Assembly: GCF_049554935.1 (NCBI RefSeq)
Contig: NZ_CP186926.1
Span: 544,001-608,000 of the forward strand
Direction of reading: 5' to 3'
Origin: Methanocaldococcus indicus
GTDB lineage: Archaea > AGJL01 > Methanococci > Methanococcales > Methanocaldococcaceae
DNA length: 64,000 nucleotides
Under the pieces are notes generated by a model. That model made no database searches. It was not told the DNA's origin and saw only the letters and a program-made list of their open reading frames with translations. The first letter of the stretch is position 1; the number at the start of each line of letters is the position of its first letter. The position numbers and the translations under genes are program-made. This document shows positions 1 to 54,254 of the stretch, piece after piece.

Positions 1-679
1 TTCCCAACTTCATAATAACATTTAAATCCATCTCTGAATAGCCTTTTTCATTTAAAGCTTTAATAAATATTTCTCTTGTTCCAGAACCTTCCTCTCTATC
101 TATAAAGTCCTCTTTTAAAATATCTTCAATAGTTGCATATCCTTTTTTAGCTAATTCATGGTTAGGAGGAACTATCAACACTAACCTATCCTTCCCAATT
201 ACTGTATATTCATAACTATCATCTAATAGATAACCAACAGCAGCTATATCAGCAAGACCTTCATTTAAAGCTTTAAAACATTTTTTAGAATCTTCAATAG
301 TTATCTCAAATTTTACATTAGGATATTTTTCAATATACTCCTTTATTAATGATGGTAAAATATGTTCTCCTGGTGTTGTTGAAGCATAAACTCTTATAAC
401 TCCTTCTGGATTTGAATACATTGATTTCATTAACATTTTAGCTTCATTTAACAATTCCAAAATTTTTTTACTTCTTTCATATAATATCTCTCCCTCTGGT
501 GTAAGCTCAACTCCTTCTGGAGTTCTTAAAAATAATTGAACATCAAAATATTTCTCTAAAGCAGATATATGATTACTTACAGTCCCTTGAGTAATGTTTA
601 GCTGTTTAGCAGCTTTTGAGAAACTTTTTGTTTCACTTGCTACGATAAATGTTTTAAAATAGCTAATCTTAGGGTCCAT
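1..679 (-). CDS. LysR-family transcriptional regulator (runs off the window start; not in the ORF track)
   Basis: Reverse strand from the ATG at 679 reads MDPKISYFKTFIVASETKSFSKAAKQLNITQGTVSNHISALEKYFDVQLFLRTPEGVELTPEG, a classic LysR HTH. It continues through ASTTPGEHILP and FIDREEGSGTR, resembling the methanococcal selenium-associated LysR (HrsM-like). RBS GGTGAG upstream. Confidence 0.9.
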   Translation of the reverse strand, partial: MDPKISYFKTFIVASETKSFSKAAKQLNITQGTVSNHISALEKYFDVQLFLRTPEGVELTPEGEILYERSKKILELLNEAKMLMKSMYSNPEGVIRVYASTTPGEHILPSLIKEYIEKYPNVKFEITIEDSKKCFKALNEGLADIAAVGYLLDDSYEYTVIGKDRLVLIVPPNHELAKKGYATIEDILKEDFIDREEGSGTREIFIKALNEKGYSEMDLNVIMKLG

Positions 680-904: not shown

Positions 905-2143
905 ATGAAAGCAGATGCAATAAAAATAGCTGACAGAGTATATTGGGTTGGAGTTTTAGATTGGGATATAAGAAAGTACCATGGATATACATTAAAAGGA
1001 ACTACCTACAACGCATACTTAGTATTTGGAGATGACAAAGTTGCTATTATTGACAATACATATCCAGGAACATCTGCACAAATGTGGGGAAGAATAAAAG
1101 ATGCATTTGAAAAAGAAGGTAGAGATTTAAAAATTGATGTTATAGTACAAAACCATGTTGAAAAAGACCACTCAGGAGCTTTACCAGAGTTACACAAAAA
1201 ATTCCCAGATGCTCCAATATACTGTACAGAAGTAGCTGTTGAAGGTTTGAAAAAGCACTATCCATCATTAGCAAATGCACCATTTAAAGTAGTTAAAAGC
1301 TTAGATAGTGTAGATTTAGGAGGAGCTACATTAACATTCTTAGAAGCTCCATTATTACACTGGCCAGATTCAATGTTCACCTTCTATGCAGAAGAAGGAA
1401 TTTTATTCTCAAATGATGCATTTGGACAACACTTATGTTTCCCAGCTCACATGAGATTTGATAAAGATATTCCAGAATATGTCTTAATGGATGCTAATAA
1501 AAAGTTCTATGCAAACTTAATAACTCCATTATCCAAATTAGTATTAAAGAAATTTGAAGAAGTTACTAACTTAGGATTATTAGAAAAAATAAAAATGATA
1601 GCTCCATCACATGGACAAATCTGGACAGACCCAATGAAAGTTATTAAAGCATATCAAGACTTTGCTACTGGAAAAGCTGCTAAGGATAAAGCAGTTATCA
1701 TCTATGACACAATGCACTACTCAACACAAAAAATGGCACATGCTTATGCAGAAGGTTTAATGAGTGAAGGAATAGAAGTAGTAATGTACTTCTTACACTA
1801 TGATGAAAGAAGTGAAATAGTTAAAGATATATTAGATGCAAAAGCTGTCTTATTTGGAACACCAACAATCTATGATGAACCATATCCATCATTAGGAGAT
1901 ATTATCTACTATTTAAGAGGATTGAAATTTAACAGAACAGGATTCAAGAGATTAGCATTAGTCTTTGGTTCAATGGGAGGTAATGGAGGAGGAGTTGATA
2001 TATTAGCAGAAGAAGTTGCAAAATGTGGATTTGAAGTAGTTGATAAAAATGAGTTATACTATGTCCCAACAGAAGATGAATTAACAAACTGCTACATGCA
2101 AGGTAAAGAATTAGGTAAAAAAATTAAAGAAATGAAAATCTAA
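905..2143 (+). CDS. fprA: Flavodiiron protein / F420H2 oxidase
   Basis: Metallo-beta-lactamase di-iron motifs [19 protein letters not shown] and PSHG, plus a C-terminal flavodoxin domain (YDTMHYST). RBS AGGTGA. Confidence 0.92.
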
Positions 2144-2385
2144 ATTATTTTAATTTTCAAGAAAATTATTCATAAATTTTTTTAACTATCTATTTTTTTA
2201 TCTATTTTTATTTCTAATAAAATTAAAATTCAGTATTATTATATCTTATTTTTACTGTCCATTACTTATTACAAATTATACAATACAGTATTAACACTTA
2301 TTAAGATTTATAAAGTTTAGTATTATTTATTATATCATTCTCATACTTAAACTCAATAAATAGTTTTATATACTATATTTATAAT

Positions 2386-2407
2386 TATAGGTAATAGCTT
2401 TCCTATA
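2386..2407. promoter_or_regulatory. Putative NrpR operator 1
   Basis: TATA-GGTA-ATAGCT-TTCC-TATA: one mismatch to the GGAA-N6-TTCC nitrogen operator of Methanococcales, with palindromic TATA flanks. Lies just downstream of a TATA-box-like TTTTATATA (2364-2372). Confidence 0.65.
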
Positions 2408-2482
2408 TCCTTATGTTATATGTTTTAAATTTTTACAAAATTGTAGGAAATGGGTATCCTATAACATAGGAAATAGGAAGGT
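2397..2482 (+). repeat. Long imperfect inverted repeat in the narK leader
   Basis: gctttcctat-a-tcc-t-tatgttata (2397-2420) pairs with tataacata-gga-a-ataggaaggt (2460-2482). The 3' arm overlaps the RBS. Confidence 0.7.
2444..2461. promoter_or_regulatory. Putative NrpR operator 2
   Basis: TA-GGAA-ATGGGT-ATCC-TA: one mismatch to GGAA-N6-TTCC, 56 bp downstream of operator 1 and upstream of the nitrate transporter. Confidence 0.65.
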
Positions 2483-2488
2483 GGTAAT

Positions 2489-3949
2489 ATGAATTTAAAA
2501 AATCAAAAAAAAGAAAAAGAAAAAAAAGTTAAAAAAGTAGATATAATTAAGGCTTTAAAAAGTGGAGATATAAAAACACTAATAGCTTCTTTATTATACT
2601 TTGATACAGGATTTATGGTGTGGTTGCTATTTGGACCAGCTTTGGGGTTATTCATAGCTCAAGAGCTTGGATTATCTCCAGCTGAAAAAGGGTTTATGGT
2701 TGCTGTTCCTATCTTAGCAGCTGCTTTATTTAGAATTCCATTTGGGTATATGTATCAAGCAATTGATGGAAAATATATAGCCCTAGCAGGAATTTTGTTA
2801 TCTGCTTTACCAATTTTATATGTTAATTTATTCCCAATTGACTATACCACACTACTTGTATTAGGTGCTTTTTTAGGAATTGGTGGAGCAAGTTTTGCAA
2901 TTGCTTTACCTATGGCTGGAAGTAATTATCCAAAACAGTATCAAGGTTTAGTTTTAGGACTTGCAGCTGCTGGTAATTTAGGAGCAATGATGGATGGTAT
3001 GGTTTTTCCACCATTAGCAGAGATGTATGGATGGAGAAAAGCAGCTTTAGTTGCATTATTGTTTTTAGCTATTTCATTTATTCTATGTTGGAAATGGATT
3101 AAAGACAGTTCTCCAAAAAAACCAGAATTAAAAATAAAATCAATTTTAAACTTTGTAATAACTTTTGTATCATTTATTGTTGTTACATTACTGTTGTATA
3201 GTGGTGTAATTGGTATAAGTGGAAAGTTTGGACTCTTACTCCTTCCAATAATAGTTTGGATTATTTCAATAGCACTATTGTCCTCAGATTATAGAAATGC
3301 ACTTAAAAAGAAAGACCCTTGGGTATTTATGCTATTCTATGCCCTAACATTTGGAGGATTCGTAGGGATGTCTGGTTCAGTTGCATTTATAATAAATAGT
3401 CAGTATGGTTTTGACCCTGTATTAGCAGGATTAACTATGGCATTACTTTCATTTACAGGTGCATTAATTAGACCTATTGGTGGATGGATTTCAGATATAA
3501 TAGGAGGAGTTAGAGTTTTATTAGCAGTATTTTTAACAATAGCATTTTGTGATTTAGTTTTAGGAATATTTATTCCTCCTGCAATTATTGGAATACCATT
3601 ATTATGGTTATTATTTGCAGCATTTGGTTTAGGTAATGGAGCAGTATTCCAATTAGTTCCACTAAGATGGCCAAGAGCAACAGGTATGGCAACAGGATTA
3701 ATTGGAGCTGCAGGAGGAATAGGAGGATTTTACTTATCTTCAACTATGGGATTAGCTAAAGAATTAACAGGTAGTTATGGGCCAGGATATATAATCTTTG
3801 GAATATTAGCATTATTAGCATTTGGAATACTCTATTTACTTAGAAATGAATATATGGAGTGGGGATTTGTTAAACATCATGAAGAAGAAATTTTTGAGTC
3901 TAATAAGTTAGATACAAATGTAGTTTTACAATATCAATCTAAAAGATAA
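2489..3949 (+). CDS. narK: NarK/NasA-family nitrate/nitrite MFS transporter
   Basis: Multi-TM MFS protein with nitrate-signature motifs GIGGASFAIALP, GLVLGLAAAGNLG, GLGNGAVFQLVP and GLIGAAGGIGGF. Conserved Arg residues in ALFRIPFG and ALIRPIGG. Confidence 0.9.
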   Translation: MNLKNQKKEKEKKVKKVDIIKALKSGDIKTLIASLLYFDTGFMVWLLFGPALGLFIAQELGLSPAEKGFMVAVPILAAALFRIPFGYMYQAIDGKYIALAGILLSALPILYVNLFPIDYTTLLVLGAFLGIGGASFAIALPMAGSNYPKQYQGLVLGLAAAGNLGAMMDGMVFPPLAEMYGWRKAALVALLFLAISFILCWKWIKDSSPKKPELKIKSILNFVITFVSFIVVTLLLYSGVIGISGKFGLLLLPIIVWIISIALLSSDYRNALKKKDPWVFMLFYALTFGGFVGMSGSVAFIINSQYGFDPVLAGLTMALLSFTGALIRPIGGWISDIIGGVRVLLAVFLTIAFCDLVLGIFIPPAIIGIPLLWLLFAAFGLGNGAVFQLVPLRWPRATGMATGLIGAAGGIGGFYLSSTMGLAKELTGSYGPGYIIFGILALLAFGILYLLRNEYMEWGFVKHHEEEIFESNKLDTNVVLQYQSKR

Positions 3950-4037
3950 CTCTAAATTCATATAACTCATTTTTCATAATATCTTTTTTATTTAAATTAT
4001 TATTTTGAGAAGAATAAATTTTTAAGGTGATGTTTTT

Positions 4038-6041
4038 ATGATAAAAACACAATGTCCTTACTGTGGATGTGGCTGTGGATTAATTATTGAGAAAAAAAAT
4101 GGAGAAATAAAAATTAAAGGAAATAGAGAACATCCTGCAAGTAAAGGTAGTATATGTATAAAAGCTGTTAAATTACCTAAAACCTTAGATAAGAATAGAT
4201 TAGATAAGGTATTATATAGAGAGTCAAAAAATGAAGATTTTAGAGAAATTAGTTGGGATTCAGCTTATGAAATATTAAAAGAAAAACTAACTAATCTATC
4301 TCCTAATGAAATCTATTTTTATATCTCTGGCCAGTTATTGACAGAAGAAATGTATGTTATAAACAAGTTTGTAAAAGGATTCTTAAAAACTAACAATATT
4401 GATTCTAATTCAAGATTGTGTGTTGCAAGTGCAGTAACAGCATACAAAATGGCTTTTGGTTCTGATGGACTACCAGGATGTAATGATGACATAGATGATG
4501 CAGATTGTTTTATCTTTGTTGGTTCTAATGCTGCTATTGCTCATCCAGGAATTTTTAGAAGAATTATAAAAAAGAAAGATAAAGAAATTGTTGTTATTGA
4601 TTTTAGATATACTGAAACGGCCAAATATGCTGACAAATGGATTCCAATAAAAGCAGGAACAGATGTAGCTCTTTTTAATTCAATACTCTATATTCTATAT
4701 AAAGAGAACAAAATATACTGGAATTTTATAAAAAAATATACTGATGGATTTGACAAAGTTTTGGAAGTCATAAAAAATTATCCACCTGAAAAAGTTGCCA
4801 AGTTGTGTGAAATTTCTGAGGAAGACATATACTATTTAGCTAATCTTTATGCAAATAAAAAGAAAGTTCTTACTTTTTGGAGTATGGGTATTAATCAATC
4901 TACAAATGGAACAATGAAAGCTCTTTCAATAATCAATGTGCATCTTGCAACAGGAAGATTAAATGATAGAGGTTGTCCTTTTTCTCTAACTGGACAATCT
5001 AATGCAATGGGAGGTAGGGAAGTAGGATATCTATCTAATGGACTACCAGGTTTTAGAGATGTTAGGAACAAAGAGGATAGAGAATTTGTAGAAAAATTTT
5101 GGGGTATTGAAGCTGGCTCAATCAAAGATAAACCTGGATTATCAATAACAGAAGCAGTAGATAAAATTTTAGATGGAGAAATAAAATTTATTTGGATTGT
5201 TTGCACAAATCCAGCAGTTTCTATGGCTAATTTAAATAAATTTATAAAGGCCTTAAAAAAAGAGGATGTATTTGTTGTAGTTCAGGATGCATACTTTACA
5301 GATACTGTTAAGTTGGCCAATCTTGCTCTTCCAGCTGCTCAATGGGGAGAAAAAGATGGTGTTATGACAGGAGGAGATAGAGTAGTTACATACTGCCAAA
5401 AATTTAGAGAAACAAAATATAAGCCTGATTGGAAAATTTTTGCTGAATTAGCTAAAAAAATGGGATTTGAAAAATACTTTAACTATAAATCTGCAAGAGA
5501 CATTTTTGAAGAATTCAAAAAACTTACAAAAGGTAGAATGTGTGACATATCTAATTTTAGTTATGAAGATTTACCTAAAAGATGGGGAAATAAACACCTA
5601 TATAAAGATTTAAAGTTTAAAACAGAAAATAAAAAAGCCAAATTTATACCAACTGAATTTAAAGAGCCAGAAGACTGGAATAAAGAAGGATTTATAATCT
5701 CAACAGGTAGGTTAAAAAAGCATTGGCACACTATGACAAGGACTATCCATATTAAAGAATTTTTAGATGAAATAGAGCCAATAGTTGAAATAAATAAAAA
5801 AGATGCCAAAGAATTAGGACTAAATGAAGGAGATATAGTTAAATTGGTGTCTGAAAGAGGAGAAATAATAAGAAAAGTGAAATTTGCAAATATAAAACCG
5901 AAACATTTATTTACCCCATTTGGATATAATAGGAACGTAACAAAGTATCAAACAAACCAGATAACAACTGATAAGTCAGACCCATATTCAAAAGAACCAG
6001 AGTTGAAATTTAGTAAGGTGAAAATATGGAATGGAAATTAA
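4038..6041 (+). CDS. narB: Assimilatory nitrate reductase catalytic subunit (NarB/NasA type, Mo/W-bisPGD)
   Basis: N-terminal CPYCGCGC...GSIC [4Fe-4S] motif and no Tat signal. FYISGQLLTEE, Mo-ligand NSRLCVASA and SLTGQSNAMGGREVG are signatures of NasA/NarB. Lies next to narK. Confidence 0.88.
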   Translation: MIKTQCPYCGCGCGLIIEKKNGEIKIKGNREHPASKGSICIKAVKLPKTLDKNRLDKVLYRESKNEDFREISWDSAYEILKEKLTNLSPNEIYFYISGQLLTEEMYVINKFVKGFLKTNNIDSNSRLCVASAVTAYKMAFGSDGLPGCNDDIDDADCFIFVGSNAAIAHPGIFRRIIKKKDKEIVVIDFRYTETAKYADKWIPIKAGTDVALFNSILYILYKENKIYWNFIKKYTDGFDKVLEVIKNYPPEKVAKLCEISEEDIYYLANLYANKKKVLTFWSMGINQSTNGTMKALSIINVHLATGRLNDRGCPFSLTGQSNAMGGREVGYLSNGLPGFRDVRNKEDREFVEKFWGIEAGSIKDKPGLSITEAVDKILDGEIKFIWIVCTNPAVSMANLNKFIKALKKEDVFVVVQDAYFTDTVKLANLALPAAQWGEKDGVMTGGDRVVTYCQKFRETKYKPDWKIFAELAKKMGFEKYFNYKSARDIFEEFKKLTKGRMCDISNFSYEDLPKRWGNKHLYKDLKFKTENKKAKFIPTEFKEPEDWNKEGFIISTGRLKKHWHTMTRTIHIKEFLDEIEPIVEINKKDAKELGLNEGDIVKLVSERGEIIRKVKFANIKPKHLFTPFGYNRNVTKYQTNQITTDKSDPYSKEPELKFSKVKIWNGN

Positions 6042-7873
6042 ATGAAATTGTAAATAATGGATTCTGTGCAGCTTGTTCAATATGTTCTGTTGTATGTCCT
6101 AATAATTTAATAGATTTTGATAACAAACCATTTTTAAAAGATGAATGTTTAAGAAAAGGGCATGGAATGTGTTATGAAGTTTGTCCAAGAGTCTCATCTG
6201 GAAAGTATCAAATTAAAATTAGAGAAGGATTTAAAGAGGAGTATTATTATGGAAAAGGAGATATAGAAGGACAAGATGGGGGTGTTGTAACTACTTTTTT
6301 AAAATATTTAATTGAAAATAAAAAGATTGATGGAGCTATTATTGTAGCAAGAGATGAGTATTGGAAACCTATTTCAATGATAGTTCAGACAGCTGATGAC
6401 ATAATAAAAGGAGCAAAATCAAAATACACAATATCAACTATGGAAGCTTTAAGAAAAGCAGGGGAGTTAGGTTTAAAAAAGGTTGCAGTTGTTGGATTAC
6501 CTTGCCAAGTTAATGCATTAAGAAAAATTAAATATTTCCCATATCTCTCCAAGCATGATTTTGAATTGGGAAGAGATGGTAAGCCCACAAAATTACCAAA
6601 AATTGAGTATTTAATTGGATTATTCTGTATGGAGAAGTTTGAATACAACAACTTTAAAGAAGTTTTAGAAAAACATAATATAAATATAAAAGATGTTAAG
6701 AAGTTTGACATTAAAAAAGGAAAGTTGTTAGTCTATTTAGATAATGAAGTTAAAGAGATTAAATTAAGTGAATTTAAAGTATTAGATGGATGTAAAGTTT
6801 GTAGAGACTTTACAGCTGAGTTGGCAGATATTTCAGTAGGTTCTGTTGGTTCTCCTGATGGATATTCAACTATCATTATAAGAACTGAGAAAGGAGAAGA
6901 AATTAAAAAGGCTATTGAATTAAAAGAAGGAGTTGATATTGAAAAAATAGAAAAATTAAAAGAGAAAAAACTAAAAAGATTTAAAGAAGAAATAAATAGA
7001 AGAAAAGAAAATAATGAATTCATCTCATACTATTGGGCTACTGATTATGGAGGAGTTAAAAAAAGAGGAGATGGAAAATTCTTTATAAGAGTTAGAGCTA
7101 AGCCAGCAGGATTTTATACAATTGATGAAATAGAAGGAATTTTAAAAGTAGCCAAAAAATACAATGCTGAAATAAAAACAACTGATAGAGGTGGATTTGA
7201 GCTTCATAAAGTAGATGGTTATTATATTGATGATATTATAAAAGAATTAAAAGAACTAAACATAACAACTGGCTCTGAAGGTCCATTGGTTAGAGCTGTC
7301 TTAGCATGTCCAGGATATTTAAATTGTGGAAATGGTTTAATTGAAACTAAAAAAATAGCTGAAATTATAGAAGAAAAATTTAAAGAGTATCCATCTGAAA
7401 ATAAATTTAAAATTTCTATAAGTGGATGCCCAAGTATGTGTGTTAGAGCAAATATCCATGATATTGGAATTGTAGGGGTAAAAATTCCAAAAGTAAATGA
7501 TAAATGTGTTGGATGTGGCAGATGTTATGAAACTTGCCCTGTAGAGGCAATTTATATAAGAGGAGAAACTTCATACACTAACTATAACATCTGTGTTGGA
7601 TGTGGAAAATGTATTAAAAACTGTCCAAATGAAGGTAGAGAGGCAAAATTTGAAGGATTTAGAATATATATTGGTGGAAAATCCGGAAGAACAGTTTATG
7701 AAGGATTCAGTTATTTAATTGAGAGAGATGTAGATAAAGTTTTAAAAATTATTGAAAATACACTAAAAACATATAAGAAATATACAGATAAAGTCCAAAG
7801 AGAAAGATTAGCTCATGTCATTAGAAAAGTAGGAGTAGAAAACTTCTTAAAAGAAGTTTTTGATAATATTTAA
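6026..7873 (+). CDS. fsr: F420-dependent sulfite/nitrite reductase (Fsr-like fusion: FrhB/FqoF F420H2-oxidising domain plus siroheme reductase domain)
   Basis: N-terminal ferredoxin motif CAACSICSVVCP. FrhB-type motifs GQDGGVVT, VGLPCQ, IGLFC and GCKVCRDFTAELADISVGSVGS. C-terminal siroheme/[4Fe-4S] motifs ACPGYLNC and KFKISISGCPSMC with an inserted 2x[4Fe-4S] domain. Confidence 0.9.
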   Translation: MEWKLNEIVNNGFCAACSICSVVCPNNLIDFDNKPFLKDECLRKGHGMCYEVCPRVSSGKYQIKIREGFKEEYYYGKGDIEGQDGGVVTTFLKYLIENKKIDGAIIVARDEYWKPISMIVQTADDIIKGAKSKYTISTMEALRKAGELGLKKVAVVGLPCQVNALRKIKYFPYLSKHDFELGRDGKPTKLPKIEYLIGLFCMEKFEYNNFKEVLEKHNINIKDVKKFDIKKGKLLVYLDNEVKEIKLSEFKVLDGCKVCRDFTAELADISVGSVGSPDGYSTIIIRTEKGEEIKKAIELKEGVDIEKIEKLKEKKLKRFKEEINRRKENNEFISYYWATDYGGVKKRGDGKFFIRVRAKPAGFYTIDEIEGILKVAKKYNAEIKTTDRGGFELHKVDGYYIDDIIKELKELNITTGSEGPLVRAVLACPGYLNCGNGLIETKKIAEIIEEKFKEYPSENKFKISISGCPSMCVRANIHDIGIVGVKIPKVNDKCVGCGRCYETCPVEAIYIRGETSYTNYNICVGCGKCIKNCPNEGREAKFEGFRIYIGGKSGRTVYEGFSYLIERDVDKVLKIIENTLKTYKKYTDKVQRERLAHVIRKVGVENFLKEVFDNI

Positions 7874-7886
7874 AAATAAATTTTTT

Positions 7887-8747
7887 TTATTGAATTTTAA
7901 TTCCTCTCTTTGTTCTTATTTCTTTAAATTTCTCTCTTAATTTTTTTGTTATTTCTCCAACTTTTTTGTTGTTAATTACTCTACCATCTACTTCAAAAAC
8001 TGGAACTATCTCAGCTGCTGTTCCAGTTATAAATAATTCATCAGCTGTATATAAATCATGTAGTGTTAAAGGAACTTCTCTAACTTCTATACCTTCCTCC
8101 TTAGCCAATTCAATAACAACATCTCTTGTAATTCCTTTTAAAATACTTTGATATTCTGGAGGTGTCTTTAAAACTCCATTTTTAACAACAAATATATTAT
8201 CTCCTGTTCCTTCAACAACAAAACCTTTATCATCCAATAAAAAAGCTTCATCTACATTTGCATAGTTTGCCTGAATCTTAGCTAATATACTATTTAAATA
8301 ATTCAAAGATTTAACAGCTGGATTTAAAACATCTACTGGCAATCTTCTAACAGAAACAGTTATAGCTCTAATTCCATCCTCCCCCAACAATGGCTCCATT
8401 GGAACAGCTATACAGAAGATAGTTGGTTCTTTACATTTTCTTGGGTCTAATCCTAAATCACCTACACCTCTTGTTACTACTAACCTAATATAAGCATCTT
8501 TTAAATTGTTCTCTTTTAGAGTGTTTATAACAACATCAATCATCTCCTCTTTTGTTAGAGGTATATCTAAGCAAATAGATTTTGCAGAATCATACAACCT
8601 ATCTATATGCTCCTTCAACATAAAAACTACTCCATCATAAGCCCTAATTCCTTCAAATACCCCATCCCCATATAGAAGTCCATGGTCAAAAACAGATATT
8701 TTAGCTTCTTCCTTACTAACAAATTTTCCATTTAAATAAATTTTCAA
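7887..8747 (-). CDS. ilvE: Branched-chain amino acid aminotransferase
   Basis: [37 protein letters not shown] and TGTAAEI. TTG start after GAGGTGA. Confidence 0.95.
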
Positions 8748-8882
8748 AATTATCACCTCAAATAATTAAATTTGAAAATTATAAATTTAAGAATTACTAT
8801 TTTAAAAAGTTGAAAGTTAAATATAAAATTAATTGTTTTATTGAATTTATAATAATTTATTTAATTATGATGAGGTGAAAAT

Positions 8883-53354: not shown

Positions 53355-54254
53355 ATGCTAATATGGGATATTATTTATTTTGTTCTTGGACTAATTTTGT
53401 TGTATTATGGTAGTGATTGGTTTGTTTTAGGAGCTGAAAGATTAGCAAAATTTTTTAATGTATCAAATTTTGTTATTGGAGCTACTGTTGTAGCTATTGG
53501 AACATCTCTTCCAGAGATAGTAACATCTATTTATGCAGCTTTAACAAACTCCCCAGGAATAACTGTTGGAAATGCTATTGGTTCATGTGTATGCAATATA
53601 GGCCTAATTTTAGGAGTATCTGCAGTAATATCACCTATATTATTAAATAAAGAATTAAAAAAAAATATTACTTATTATATAATTTTGATAGTTATTTTAA
53701 CAATCCTGTCAATTAATGGATTTGATACTATTGATGGAATTATACTATTAATATTAACATTACTTTATTTAAAAAAGACAATATCTGATGGTAAGGTAGA
53801 AGAAAACAACAATAATAAAGATTTCTCATTACCATTCTCTATTATTATGTTGGTTATAGGATTAGGAGCTGTTTTGTCTGGCTCACAGTTTTTAGTTGAG
53901 GGAGCAAAAGGATTAGCTAAGGCTTTTGGAGTTCCAGACTTTATTATTGGATTTACACTTGTAGCTATTGGAACATCTCTTCCAGAGTTGATGGTTTCTA
54001 TAATATCTGCAAAAAGAAAATTAGGAGGATTAGTATTAGGTAATATCTTAGGAAGTAATATAATTGATGTAGGATTTGCATTAGGTTTGCCAGCAGTGTT
54101 TTATCATCTACCTTCCAACTACTTAGGGATATTATCATTATTTATACTATCAGCTTTAATTTATATATTTTCATTAAAAAACAAAATTAGTAGAGTTGAT
54201 GGGGCTATTATTTTAATAATATATTTAATTACAATATATTTCATATTTTTTTAG
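53355..54254 (+). CDS. Calcium/sodium antiporter (CaCA family, NCX_Mj-like)
   Basis: Two alpha repeats, both VAIGTSLPE; GNAIGS and GNILGSN. Confidence 0.93.
   Translation: MLIWDIIYFVLGLILLYYGSDWFVLGAERLAKFFNVSNFVIGATVVAIGTSLPEIVTSIYAALTNSPGITVGNAIGSCVCNIGLILGVSAVISPILLNKELKKNITYYIILIVILTILSINGFDTIDGIILLILTLLYLKKTISDGKVEENNNNKDFSLPFSIIMLVIGLGAVLSGSQFLVEGAKGLAKAFGVPDFIIGFTLVAIGTSLPELMVSIISAKRKLGGLVLGNILGSNIIDVGFALGLPAVFYHLPSNYLGILSLFILSALIYIFSLKNKISRVDGAIILIIYLITIYFIFF

Follow-up and report, generated by a model that had tools for sequence, protein, structure and literature searches.

Since nitrite is a poison of methanogenesis, methanogens were for a long time considered unable to use nitrate. 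A methanogen nitrate operon was first proposed and named by Maslac et al. in 2022 (PMC9765008), and nitrate-dependent growth of M. infernus was reported in July 2026 by Heidenreich, Gouveia and Wagner (PMC13381448). According to the latter paper, the Fsr of M. infernus catalyses the F420H2-dependent reduction of nitrite, which was found bound in the crystal, and narK-nas-fsr operons occur in three other Methanococcales, being intact in M. indicus and FS406-22. Growth and enzymology were thus studied in M. infernus, where fsr is unlinked; as to nitrate reductase, the activity reported for fractions of this species is only weak and was obtained with benzyl viologen (PMC13381448). The narK-nas-fsr nitrate system is already published, and the caveat of a first-pass annotation of the DNA studied here, that related clusters may have been described, was borne out by these papers of 2022 and 2026.

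The window, i.e. the whole stretch of 64,000 nucleotides of Methanocaldococcus indicus DNA that was analysed, carries such a locus (Table 1), which very probably (about 0.87) is a nitrate assimilation ('salvage') operon of Methanococcales. The ORF listing confirms the three co-directional genes already proposed, including the overlap of the last two; the start codon of fsr (ATG, 6026) precedes the stop codon of nas (TAA, 6039–6041). A Shine-Dalgarno-like GGTG motif is found 4 to 13 nt 5' of each of the three start codons, with an AAGGTGA motif at 6015–6021, 5' of the fsr ATG, and the overlap suggests translational coupling. A search by eye for an internal fsr promoter in positions 5800–6040 revealed no obvious TATA box, which carries no weight at a G+C content of ~30%. 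An FprA-like flavodiiron gene (905–2143), co-directional with the operon, lies 345 nt from narK; it was rejected as a component of the system, being adjacent in 0 of the other three loci. On the downstream flank, ilvE (7887–8756) is convergent to the operon. Environmental contigs ~99% identical to the locus, from two further DNA runs of one study, span the narK-nas and nas-fsr junctions; among the matches listed, none covers the operator-like sites.

Table 1. Features of the narK-nas-fsr locus (positions in the window)
Feature	Coordinates	Strand	Basis or remark
TATA-box-like AT-rich stretch, presumed narK promoter	2364..2388	+	sequence reading; just 5' of operator-like site 1
NrpR-operator-like palindrome 1, GGTAATAGCTTTCC, 1 mismatch to GGAA-N6-TTCC	2390..2403	.	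ends 85 nt before narK ATG
NrpR-operator-like palindrome 2, GGAAATGGGTATCC, 1 mismatch	2446..2459	.	ends 29 nt before narK ATG
narK, divergent NarK/NNP-family nitrate transporter, 486 aa	2489..3949	+	ORF listing, Pfam, NCBIfam
nas (narB-type), cytoplasmic Mo/W-bis-pterin nitrate reductase, 667 aa	4038..6041	+	three-domain Pfam architecture, motifs, tree
nas 3' end / fsr 5' end overlap, 16 nt	6026..6041	+	ORF listing and sequence reading
fsr, group I F420H2-dependent sulfite/nitrite reductase, 615 aa, sole copy in the genome	6026..7873	+	PDB matches, residues, Pfam

The narK product (Pfam MFS_1) reaches 254.5 bits against the NarK family model TIGR00886 of NCBIfam, under its cut-off of 311.7, and belongs to a divergent subgroup, as PMC13381448 also states. 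Its matches to NarU/NarK in the PDB score 66 bits. Both R82 (AALFRIPFG) and R328 (GALIRPIGG) are conserved and align with E. coli NarU arginines, presumably the substrate arginines of NNP porters, and the glycine-rich NNP motifs GNLG (AAGNLG) and GLGNG (GLGNGAVFQ) are present. Among 40 genomes of the order, NarK orthologues (77–83% identity) are encoded by only three others, a fifth genome carrying a decayed narK relic, and Nas orthologues are found in the same four. The closest relatives outside methanogens belong to Aquificota and other bacteria for both proteins, with identities of 50–59% for NarK and 55–61% for Nas.

The nas product, which starts with MIKTQCPYCGCGCG, displays the domains Molybdop_Fe4S4 (PF04879, from residue 2), Molybdopterin (PF00384) and Molydop_binding (PF01568). 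The Cys-x2-Cys-x3-Cys motif of the N-terminal [4Fe-4S] cluster (C6, C9, C13) begins at residue 6 and therefore leaves no room for a Tat signal; a twin-arginine signal peptide is indeed absent, as in a cytoplasmic, assimilatory enzyme. The metal-ligand motif reads RLC128-V129-ASAV, compared with RLCMASAV in D. desulfuricans NapA and RL(Sec)HS in formate dehydrogenases, and LTGQSNAMGGR (LTGQSN) corresponds to LTGQPN of NapA and LRGQNN of formate dehydrogenases, Thr replacing the Arg of the latter. We take the Cys without His and the Thr for Arg to be, following the FdhH/NapA literature, the positions that distinguish Nap/Nas from formate dehydrogenases. Judged from these residues, the active site is of the Nap/Nas type and not that of a formate dehydrogenase. 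A tree of 33 rows unites the five methanogen sequences with a metagenomic one (P0004) in a single clade (100/100) among Aquificota, the FdhA outgroup being set apart by a branch of 2.5 substitutions per site.

The fsr product combines FrhB_FdhB_N/C, NIR_SIR_ferr, NIR_SIR and Fer4 domains (Pfam), the NCBIfam models likewise recognizing an FrhB-type N-terminal half and a sulfite-reductase-type C-terminal half. It is collinear over residues 1–611 with PDB 9tn7, 7np8 and 7npa (989, 949 and 922 bits, respectively) and displays the architecture of group I, in which an F420H2 oxidase half resembling FrhB is joined to a siroheme sulfite/nitrite reductase half that contains inserted ferredoxin domains. 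The siroheme-cluster cysteines (Cys428/434/468/472) are present, as are R355, R423, K460 and K462, the counterparts of Arg356, Arg424, Lys461 and Lys463 that bind the substrate in the M. infernus enzyme (PMC13381448). All Fsr rows of the order but one (31 of 32) keep the second of these arginines, the exception being the operon copy of genome G037, which has Thr. The protein is 69% identical to the M. infernus-type Fsr and deviates at 11 of 195 positions that are invariant across the 31 other rows.

The first-pass annotation had proposed that an Fsr copy was recruited as a dedicated nitrite reductase and had called for its comparison with the other copies of the genome. This proposal fails, since the genome has a single full-length Fsr and a single NIR_SIR-domain gene, both being the operon fsr; in the tree, its product clusters with the single-copy Fsr of the closest species relatives (G008, G003 and G015). 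Two other genomes, G006 and G037, each carry an operon-linked and a stand-alone fsr.

The history of these copies has to be read through recombination. The Fsr trees, built from the 40 genomes of the order, were midpoint-rooted because a wider search returned the same 40 genomes and no outgroup. With the whole-gene alignment, AU tests posed after inspection of the tree rejected a clade of the three operon copies (p 0.0008) and a clade of the G006 and G037 operon copies (p 0.0005) and did not reject a clade of the operon and stand-alone copies of G006 (p 0.40). An independent recruitment of fsr, initially drawn from this tree and these tests, was dropped when recombination tracts were found, since such tracts make the alignment a mosaic. 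In both genomes with two copies, the operon-linked fsr is indeed a gene-conversion mosaic, its DNA being 100% identical to the stand-alone copy over ~450 nt in G006 and 96–100% identical over ~800 nt and ~270 nt in G037. In segments free of recent recombination, the G006 and G037 operon copies are sisters, allied with the single Fsr of the clade of the window's genome. These sequence relationships suggest that a resident fsr was captured once and that narK-nas-fsr then spread (or was anciently inherited) as a three-gene cassette, whose fsr appears to have undergone repeated gene conversion with the host's own copy as donor. A simple insertion beside a resident fsr was rejected: in G003, G008 and G015, the single-copy fsr has flanks unlike those in the window; gene order among these three genomes and that of the window is heavily scrambled.

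The nif and glnA operators of NrpR in Methanococcus maripaludis reportedly have the sequence GGAA-N6-TTCC, in work of Lie and Leigh from 2003 and 2005. The genome of the window encodes NrpR and carries exact copies of this palindrome 5' of glnA, nifH, both amtB genes, glnK and a ModA-like gene. The narK promoter region has no exact copy and instead carries the two one-mismatch sites of Table 1, the first of which aligns with exact sites 5' of narK in all three relatives (G006, G003 and G037); G006 also has a second, one-mismatch site at similar spacing (32 nt). One-mismatch sites are common (553 in the chromosome), but two sites with at most one mismatch in 345 nt exceed the 0.135 expected from the genome-wide density of 0.39 per kb (Poisson P ~0.008). 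In each of the three genomes with exact operators, fsr is either present in a second copy or unlinked; in the window, weakened operators may allow sufficient Fsr to be made for protection against sulfite even with ammonium in ample supply. The NikR-like gene considered as a regulator of the operon was set aside as a mere synteny marker; in the genome of the window, it lies far from the operon (C1:1374813-1375217). In M. thermolithotrophicus, narK/narB are upregulated ~5 log2-fold under N2 fixation (PMC9765008). The main text of PMC13381448 makes no mention of NrpR, operators or promoters, and neither the NrpR sites, the fsr gene conversion nor the narK relic were found in the main texts of the two papers, although Supplementary Figures S1/S5 of PMC13381448 may show Fsr relationships or promoter features. 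The joint proposal of an NrpR wiring of the operon together with fsr capture, gene conversion of the cassette and weakened operators is tentative, and we consider it more doubtful than probable.

How far the assignment to nitrate assimilation holds depends first on the Mo/W enzyme, which could in principle be a formate dehydrogenase or another oxidoreductase unrelated to nitrate, as would then be the cluster. Indeed, Nas passes the cut-off of no curated nitrate reductase model (NasC, 437 bits for a cut-off of 1100; NasA_Halo, 380 for 1000; NapA, 357 for 904), the best-scoring NCBIfam model is Fdh-alpha, itself under its cut-off (497 for 666), and the best PDB match by E-value is the F420-dependent formate dehydrogenase 9t1s, with 363.1 bits against 362.8 for NapA. 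However, where formate dehydrogenases have the Sec/Cys-His pair and the catalytic Arg, Nas has Cys-Val and Thr, like NapA; the genuine FdhA genes of the order, which contain a TGA codon, encode proteins just 33–40% identical to Nas and lie across the long outgroup branch; nas adjoins a gene of the NarK-family transporter in 4/4 genomes; and its closest named relatives are annotated as Aquificota nitrate reductases, all of which makes a formate dehydrogenase scarcely credible here. It is also very unlikely, if somewhat less so, that the cluster serves detoxification or dissimilatory reduction of nitrate and nitrite rather than nitrogen assimilation. Nitrite is toxic to methanogens and detoxified by Fsr (PMC13381448), and the top NCBIfam likeness of the upstream FprA-like protein is to the NO-reductase flavorubredoxin (338 bits, under the 635 cut-off). 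Nevertheless, that gene has no counterpart beside the other three loci, Nas has neither a signal peptide nor a membrane or quinol-linked partner, the operators of the NrpR type found 5' of narK in relatives speak for control by nitrogen status, and M. infernus grows with nitrate as sole nitrogen source, consuming ammonium first (PMC13381448).

Within nitrate assimilation, the linked fsr might still be a specialized nitrite reductase paralogue distinct from the Fsr that detoxifies sulfite, a possibility named in PMC13381448. The co-occurrence of operon-linked and stand-alone copies in G006 and G037 would fit such a division, as would the Thr at the R423 position of the G037 operon copy and the very long branch of its active-site module (0.8, the median being 0.033). 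However, this divergent copy adjoins a nas interrupted by a stop codon, so relaxed selection is an equal reading, and the active-site modules of the operon and stand-alone copies of G006 share the same DNA sequence (100% identity). As the genome of the window has a single Fsr, which keeps all four substrate-binding residues and groups with single-copy relatives, specialization is unlikely.

Under the preferred reading, nitrate assimilation, NarK would bring nitrate into the cell, where the cytoplasmic Cys-ligated Mo- or W-bis-pterin Nas would reduce it to nitrite with electrons probably supplied by ferredoxin, the operon containing no donor gene. Fsr would then reduce nitrite to ammonium with F420H2, also shielding methyl-coenzyme M reductase from nitrite; as the only Fsr of the organism, it is expected to act on sulfite as well as nitrite. 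Transcription most likely begins 5' of narK and, to judge from the operator-like sites, would be shut down by NrpR under an ample supply of fixed nitrogen; the 16-nt overlap would tie the synthesis of Fsr to that of Nas. The genes narK and nas were probably acquired once, from Aquificota-type bacteria, fsr being archaeal. The chimeric nitrate-to-ammonium pathway of the first-pass annotation is therefore retained for its bacterial-type narK/nas and archaeal Fsr at the nitrite step, and given up for the dedicated Fsr copy.

That two bacterial genes and a native F420 enzyme make nitrate use possible in a methanogen is a point now published. The window adds the probable translational coupling of the only Fsr of an organism to its nitrate reductase and a testable link to nitrogen control by NrpR. 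Moreover, gene conversion, by keeping the operon copy like the resident one, matters for Fsr phylogenies and for arguments about nitrite specialization.

Compared with the salvage pathway of other Methanococcales, the locus differs neither in its three gene families nor in their order. Identity to the G003, G006 and G037 copies is 77–83% for NarK, 68–71% for Nas and 63–69% for Fsr, the named homologues being from Methanocaldococcus sp. FS406-22 and M. infernus ME. A linked fsr without a second isoform agrees with the statement of PMC13381448 on M. indicus; by comparison, fsr is unlinked in M. infernus, and M. thermolithotrophicus and FS406-22 have a second one, whereas the sole fsr of the window overlaps nas. 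A NikR-like gene precedes the operon in G003 and G006 but is not adjacent in the window, whose narK sites are each one base off the consensus kept by these relatives. The NrpR regulon of M. maripaludis is matched by the NrpR gene, by exact palindromes at nifH, glnA, amtB and glnK, and at narK in three relatives; the mismatched narK sites of the window are putative operators.

Outside methanogens, the nearest Nas (55–61%) belong to narK-narB(-nirA/NAD(P)H nitrite reductase) clusters of Aquificota (Aquifex, Persephonella, Hydrogenothermaceae, Sulfurihydrogenibium), whose NarK are among the nearest non-methanogen relatives (50–55%); in at least 10 pairs, a NarK match and a Nas match come from contigs of equal length, which suggests that the two genes are linked. 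However, the bacterial clusters end with an NAD(P)H-linked nitrite reductase instead of an F420-dependent Fsr (PMC13381448), and some Persephonella-type Nas (~820 aa) have at their C-terminus a globin domain, which the Nas of the window lacks. The periplasmic NapA of D. desulfuricans (PDB 2jim/2jio/2nap; 363 bits) shares with Nas the Fe4S4 motif, the Cys ligand in RLC(M/V)ASAV and LTGQxNAxGG(x)R, but Nas lacks a signal peptide and a NapC-type partner and its C-terminal domain aligns weakly (29 bits); being cytoplasmic, it is of the NC-type in the nomenclature of PMC13381448. Finally, Fsr is collinear over its full length with the group I structures (9tn7/9tn9, MtFsr 7np8, MjFsr 7npa) and shares their four substrate Arg/Lys and siroheme-cluster cysteines, differing by its changes at invariant positions (11/195) and by a gene embedded in a nitrate operon.

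The three co-directional genes and the 16-nt nas/fsr overlap (6026-6041) described in the first-pass annotation match the ORF listing exactly, the fsr ATG at 6026 lying within the end of nas, whose TAA stands at 6039-6041. The narK product scores 254.5 bits against the NCBIfam NarK family TIGR00886 (cut-off 311.7), and its alignment to E. coli NarU/NarK is weak, at 66 bits. The two substrate arginines (R82, R328) and the glycine-rich motifs are conserved, and its closest non-methanogen relatives (50-59% identity) come from Campylobacteraceae, Hydrogenothermaceae, Aquificaceae, Burkholderiaceae and contigs without taxon name. The Fsr (F420-dependent sulfite/nitrite reductase) is collinear end to end with the solved structures 9tn7/9tn9, 7np8 and 7npa (989, 949 and 922 bits); the four siroheme-cluster cysteines are present, as are R355, R423, K460 and K462, counterparts of R356, R424, K461 and K463 of the M. 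infernus enzyme (MiFsr). The FprA-like gene probably lies beside narK by chance, since it is non-adjacent in the other three operon loci; the top NCBIfam likeness of its product is NO-reductase flavorubredoxin (338 bits, below cut-off). Environmental DNA runs X2 and X3 of one other study contain contigs that match the operon (2144-7900) at about 99% identity and span both the narK-nas and nas-fsr junctions; therefore, close relatives with the same arrangement are present in other samples.

Features of the nitrate operon, its predicted operators and related loci (locations without prefix are window positions; G, genomes of the order, G000 carrying the window; C1, chromosome; L, extracted loci of relatives; domain names of the narK, nas and fsr products from Pfam)
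Feature	Location	Strand	Remarks
FprA-like flavodiiron gene	905-2143	+	metallo-beta-lactamase and flavodoxin domains; 345 nt upstream of narK, co-directional
Operator-like site 1	2390-2403		GGTAATAGCTTTCC; one mismatch; aligned with relatives' palindrome
Operator-like site 2	2446-2459		GGAAATGGGTATCC; one mismatch
narK	2489-3949	+	486 aa; MFS_1
nas	4038-6041	+	667 aa; Molybdop_Fe4S4, Molybdopterin, Molydop_binding
fsr	6026-7873	+	615 aa; FrhB_FdhB_N/C, NIR_SIR_ferr, NIR_SIR, 4Fe-4S ferredoxin domains
ilvE	7887-8756		convergent to fsr; begins 13 nt past it
ModA-like solute-binding gene	G000:C1:472296-473063		outside window, near nif cluster; exact upstream site
Peripla_BP_6 binding-protein gene	G000:C1:818167-819423		outside window; exact upstream site
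PF00384 frame	G000:C1:1018284-1019420		outside window; 441 aa; one in-frame TGA
NikR-like gene of G013	L071:4490-4900		
narK relic of G013	L071:5072-5389 (G013:C1:651104-651373)		about 89-105 residues, 82-86% identical to intact NarK
G006 fsr	L030:8221-10089		compared with L042/L070
G006 fsr, operon vs stand-alone	codons 361-510		DNA identity 100%
G006 fsr, operon vs stand-alone	remaining codons		DNA identity 65-87%
G037 fsr	L032:8208-10109		compared with L051
G037 fsr, operon vs stand-alone	codons ~61-330 and 481-570		DNA identity 96-100%
G037 fsr, operon vs stand-alone	codons 361-480		DNA identity 54-68%

Against NCBIfam, the nas product scores 497 bits with Fdh-alpha and 437 bits with NasC, both below their cut-offs, and these scores by themselves leave its class ambiguous. 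Residue-level alignments settle the predicted enzyme as Nap-like rather than as a formate dehydrogenase (FDH). Indeed, it carries RLC128-V-ASAV, like RLCMASAV of D. desulfuricans NapA, where the F420-dependent FDH (9t1s) has RL-(Sec)-H-S, and LTGQSNAMGGR, like LTGQPNACGGVR of the same NapA, where FDH has LRGQNN; the residues compared have catalytic roles in FDH and Nap. The N-terminus, MIKTQCPYCGCGCG, leaves no space for a Tat signal, which points to a cytoplasmic enzyme. In a 33-row tree, built from 29 of the 120 matches listed and the G037 gene with its internal stop replaced by X, and with three FdhA as outgroups, the sequences of G000, G003, G006 and G037 and the database matches P0005 and P0004 form one clade (100/100). 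This methanogen clade sits among Aquificota sequences, beside a Persephonella/Hydrogenothermaceae group (84/85), and FdhA is separated from Nas by a branch of 2.5 substitutions per site. The grouping with formate dehydrogenases that the first-pass annotation had named as fatal to its reading is thus contradicted by both the NapA-like residues and this distance. Furthermore, PF00384 matches only two loci in G000, nas and a 441-aa frame that is presumably a selenocysteine-containing formylmethanofuran dehydrogenase subunit B; therefore, FdhA is absent from this genome. Nas homologues of about 820 aa in Persephonella/Aquificota (P0011, P0014, P0020, P0027, P0032 and others) bear a C-terminal globin domain (PF00042).

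The proposal that an Fsr copy was recruited as a dedicated nitrite reductase is wrong for G000, which encodes one Fsr and one NIR_SIR-domain gene. This Fsr clusters with the single-copy Fsr of G008, G003 and G015 (100/98 and 100/99), and a 24-row MetRS tree likewise groups G000 with these three genomes (100/99); the operon fsr is therefore the ordinary Fsr of the lineage, with no extra dedicated copy. By analogy with M. infernus Fsr, for which a dual role has been argued (PMC13381448), it is expected to act on both nitrite and sulfite.

Whole-gene Fsr trees and AU tests pointed to separate origins of the three operon-linked fsr copies, which is misleading. Sliding-window comparison reveals stretches of high identity between operon and stand-alone copies in G006 and G037 that read as gene-conversion tracts, so that the whole-gene trees are mosaics. 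Over the 139 columns free of both conversions, the G006 and G037 operon copies are sisters (95/87), and together with the Fsr of G000, G003, G008 and G015 they split from the other 26 rows (95/90), a split to be taken with caution given the long branches in the clade. In the G037 operon copy, the active-site module, which escaped conversion, sits on a branch of 0.8 (median 0.033) and has Thr at the R423 position, matching the substitution given in PMC13381448; decay and specialisation are indistinguishable here because the neighbouring nas is broken. This apparent recombination is a modest new lead.

Another modest lead concerns regulation. Although the sequences ahead of narK average only 56% identity across the four operon-bearing genomes, they share a palindrome. 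Its forms in the relatives, GGAAATAGGCTTCC (G006, G003) and GGAATAAAGCTTCC (G037), fit GGAA-N6-TTCC exactly; these sites are positional homologues, not independent observations. GGAA-N6-TTCC is the consensus operator of the archaeal nitrogen regulator NrpR in Methanococcus. G000 encodes NrpR, and its chromosome holds 56 exact sites (9.3 expected from base composition), the intergenic ones lying upstream of glnA, nifH, both amtB, glnK and genes for ModA-like and Peripla_BP_6 binding proteins, the last two being candidate regulon members. With up to one mismatch allowed, the density of sites in G000 is 0.39 per kb, giving a Poisson probability of about 0.008 for the two predicted operators in 345 nt. 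NrpR sites at narK are not mentioned in the main text of PMC13381448 or in the accessible part of that of PMC9765008, supplements aside. Elsewhere, an identical 14-mer, GGAACATCTCTTCC, occurs twice in coding sequence, 471 nt apart (53499-53512 and 53970-53983; G000:C1:597499 and 597970), with a similar pair at C1:653237 and 654701, a pattern that may reflect an internal repeat or tandem paralogues.

In G006 and G003 the gene immediately before narK is NikR-like; in G037 its counterpart stands about 3.4 kb upstream. On the downstream side, G006 and G037 also have three genes in common, one of them a CGGC-domain gene. In a fifth genome, G013, a narK relic (86.5% identical to G006 NarK over 89 residues) directly follows the NikR-like gene, as narK does in G006 and G003, so that the operon looks to have decayed there. 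The 830 kb separating the NikR-like gene of G000 from the operon mean that one or the other has moved.

The operon finding is real and well read, yet already known from PMC13381448 and PMC9765008. According to the latter (mBio 2022), narK and narB are strongly induced during diazotrophy in M. thermolithotrophicus, and the co-occurring Fsr isoform was put forward as nitrite reductase. PMC13381448 (Front Microbiol, July 2026) reports growth of M. infernus with nitrate as sole N source, phylogenies in which Nas groups with Aquificales sequences and NarK with those of Aquificaceae and Burkholderiaceae, purification of Fsr as the nitrite reductase, with F420H2 oxidised in the presence of nitrite or sulfite, and its nitrite-bound structure. 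In that paper, the carriers of narK-nas-fsr are M. thermolithotrophicus (nas stop-broken), M. indicus and Methanocaldococcus sp. FS406-22; for M. infernus it gives narK-nas with no fsr attached. The scan of 40 genomes of the order agrees with this distribution: Nas orthologues (68-71% identity) occur in four (G000, G003, G006 and G037, the last interrupted by one TAA), NarK orthologues in the same four, and fsr after nas in all of these except G003, Fsr itself being widespread (32/40 at E 1e-100 or better).
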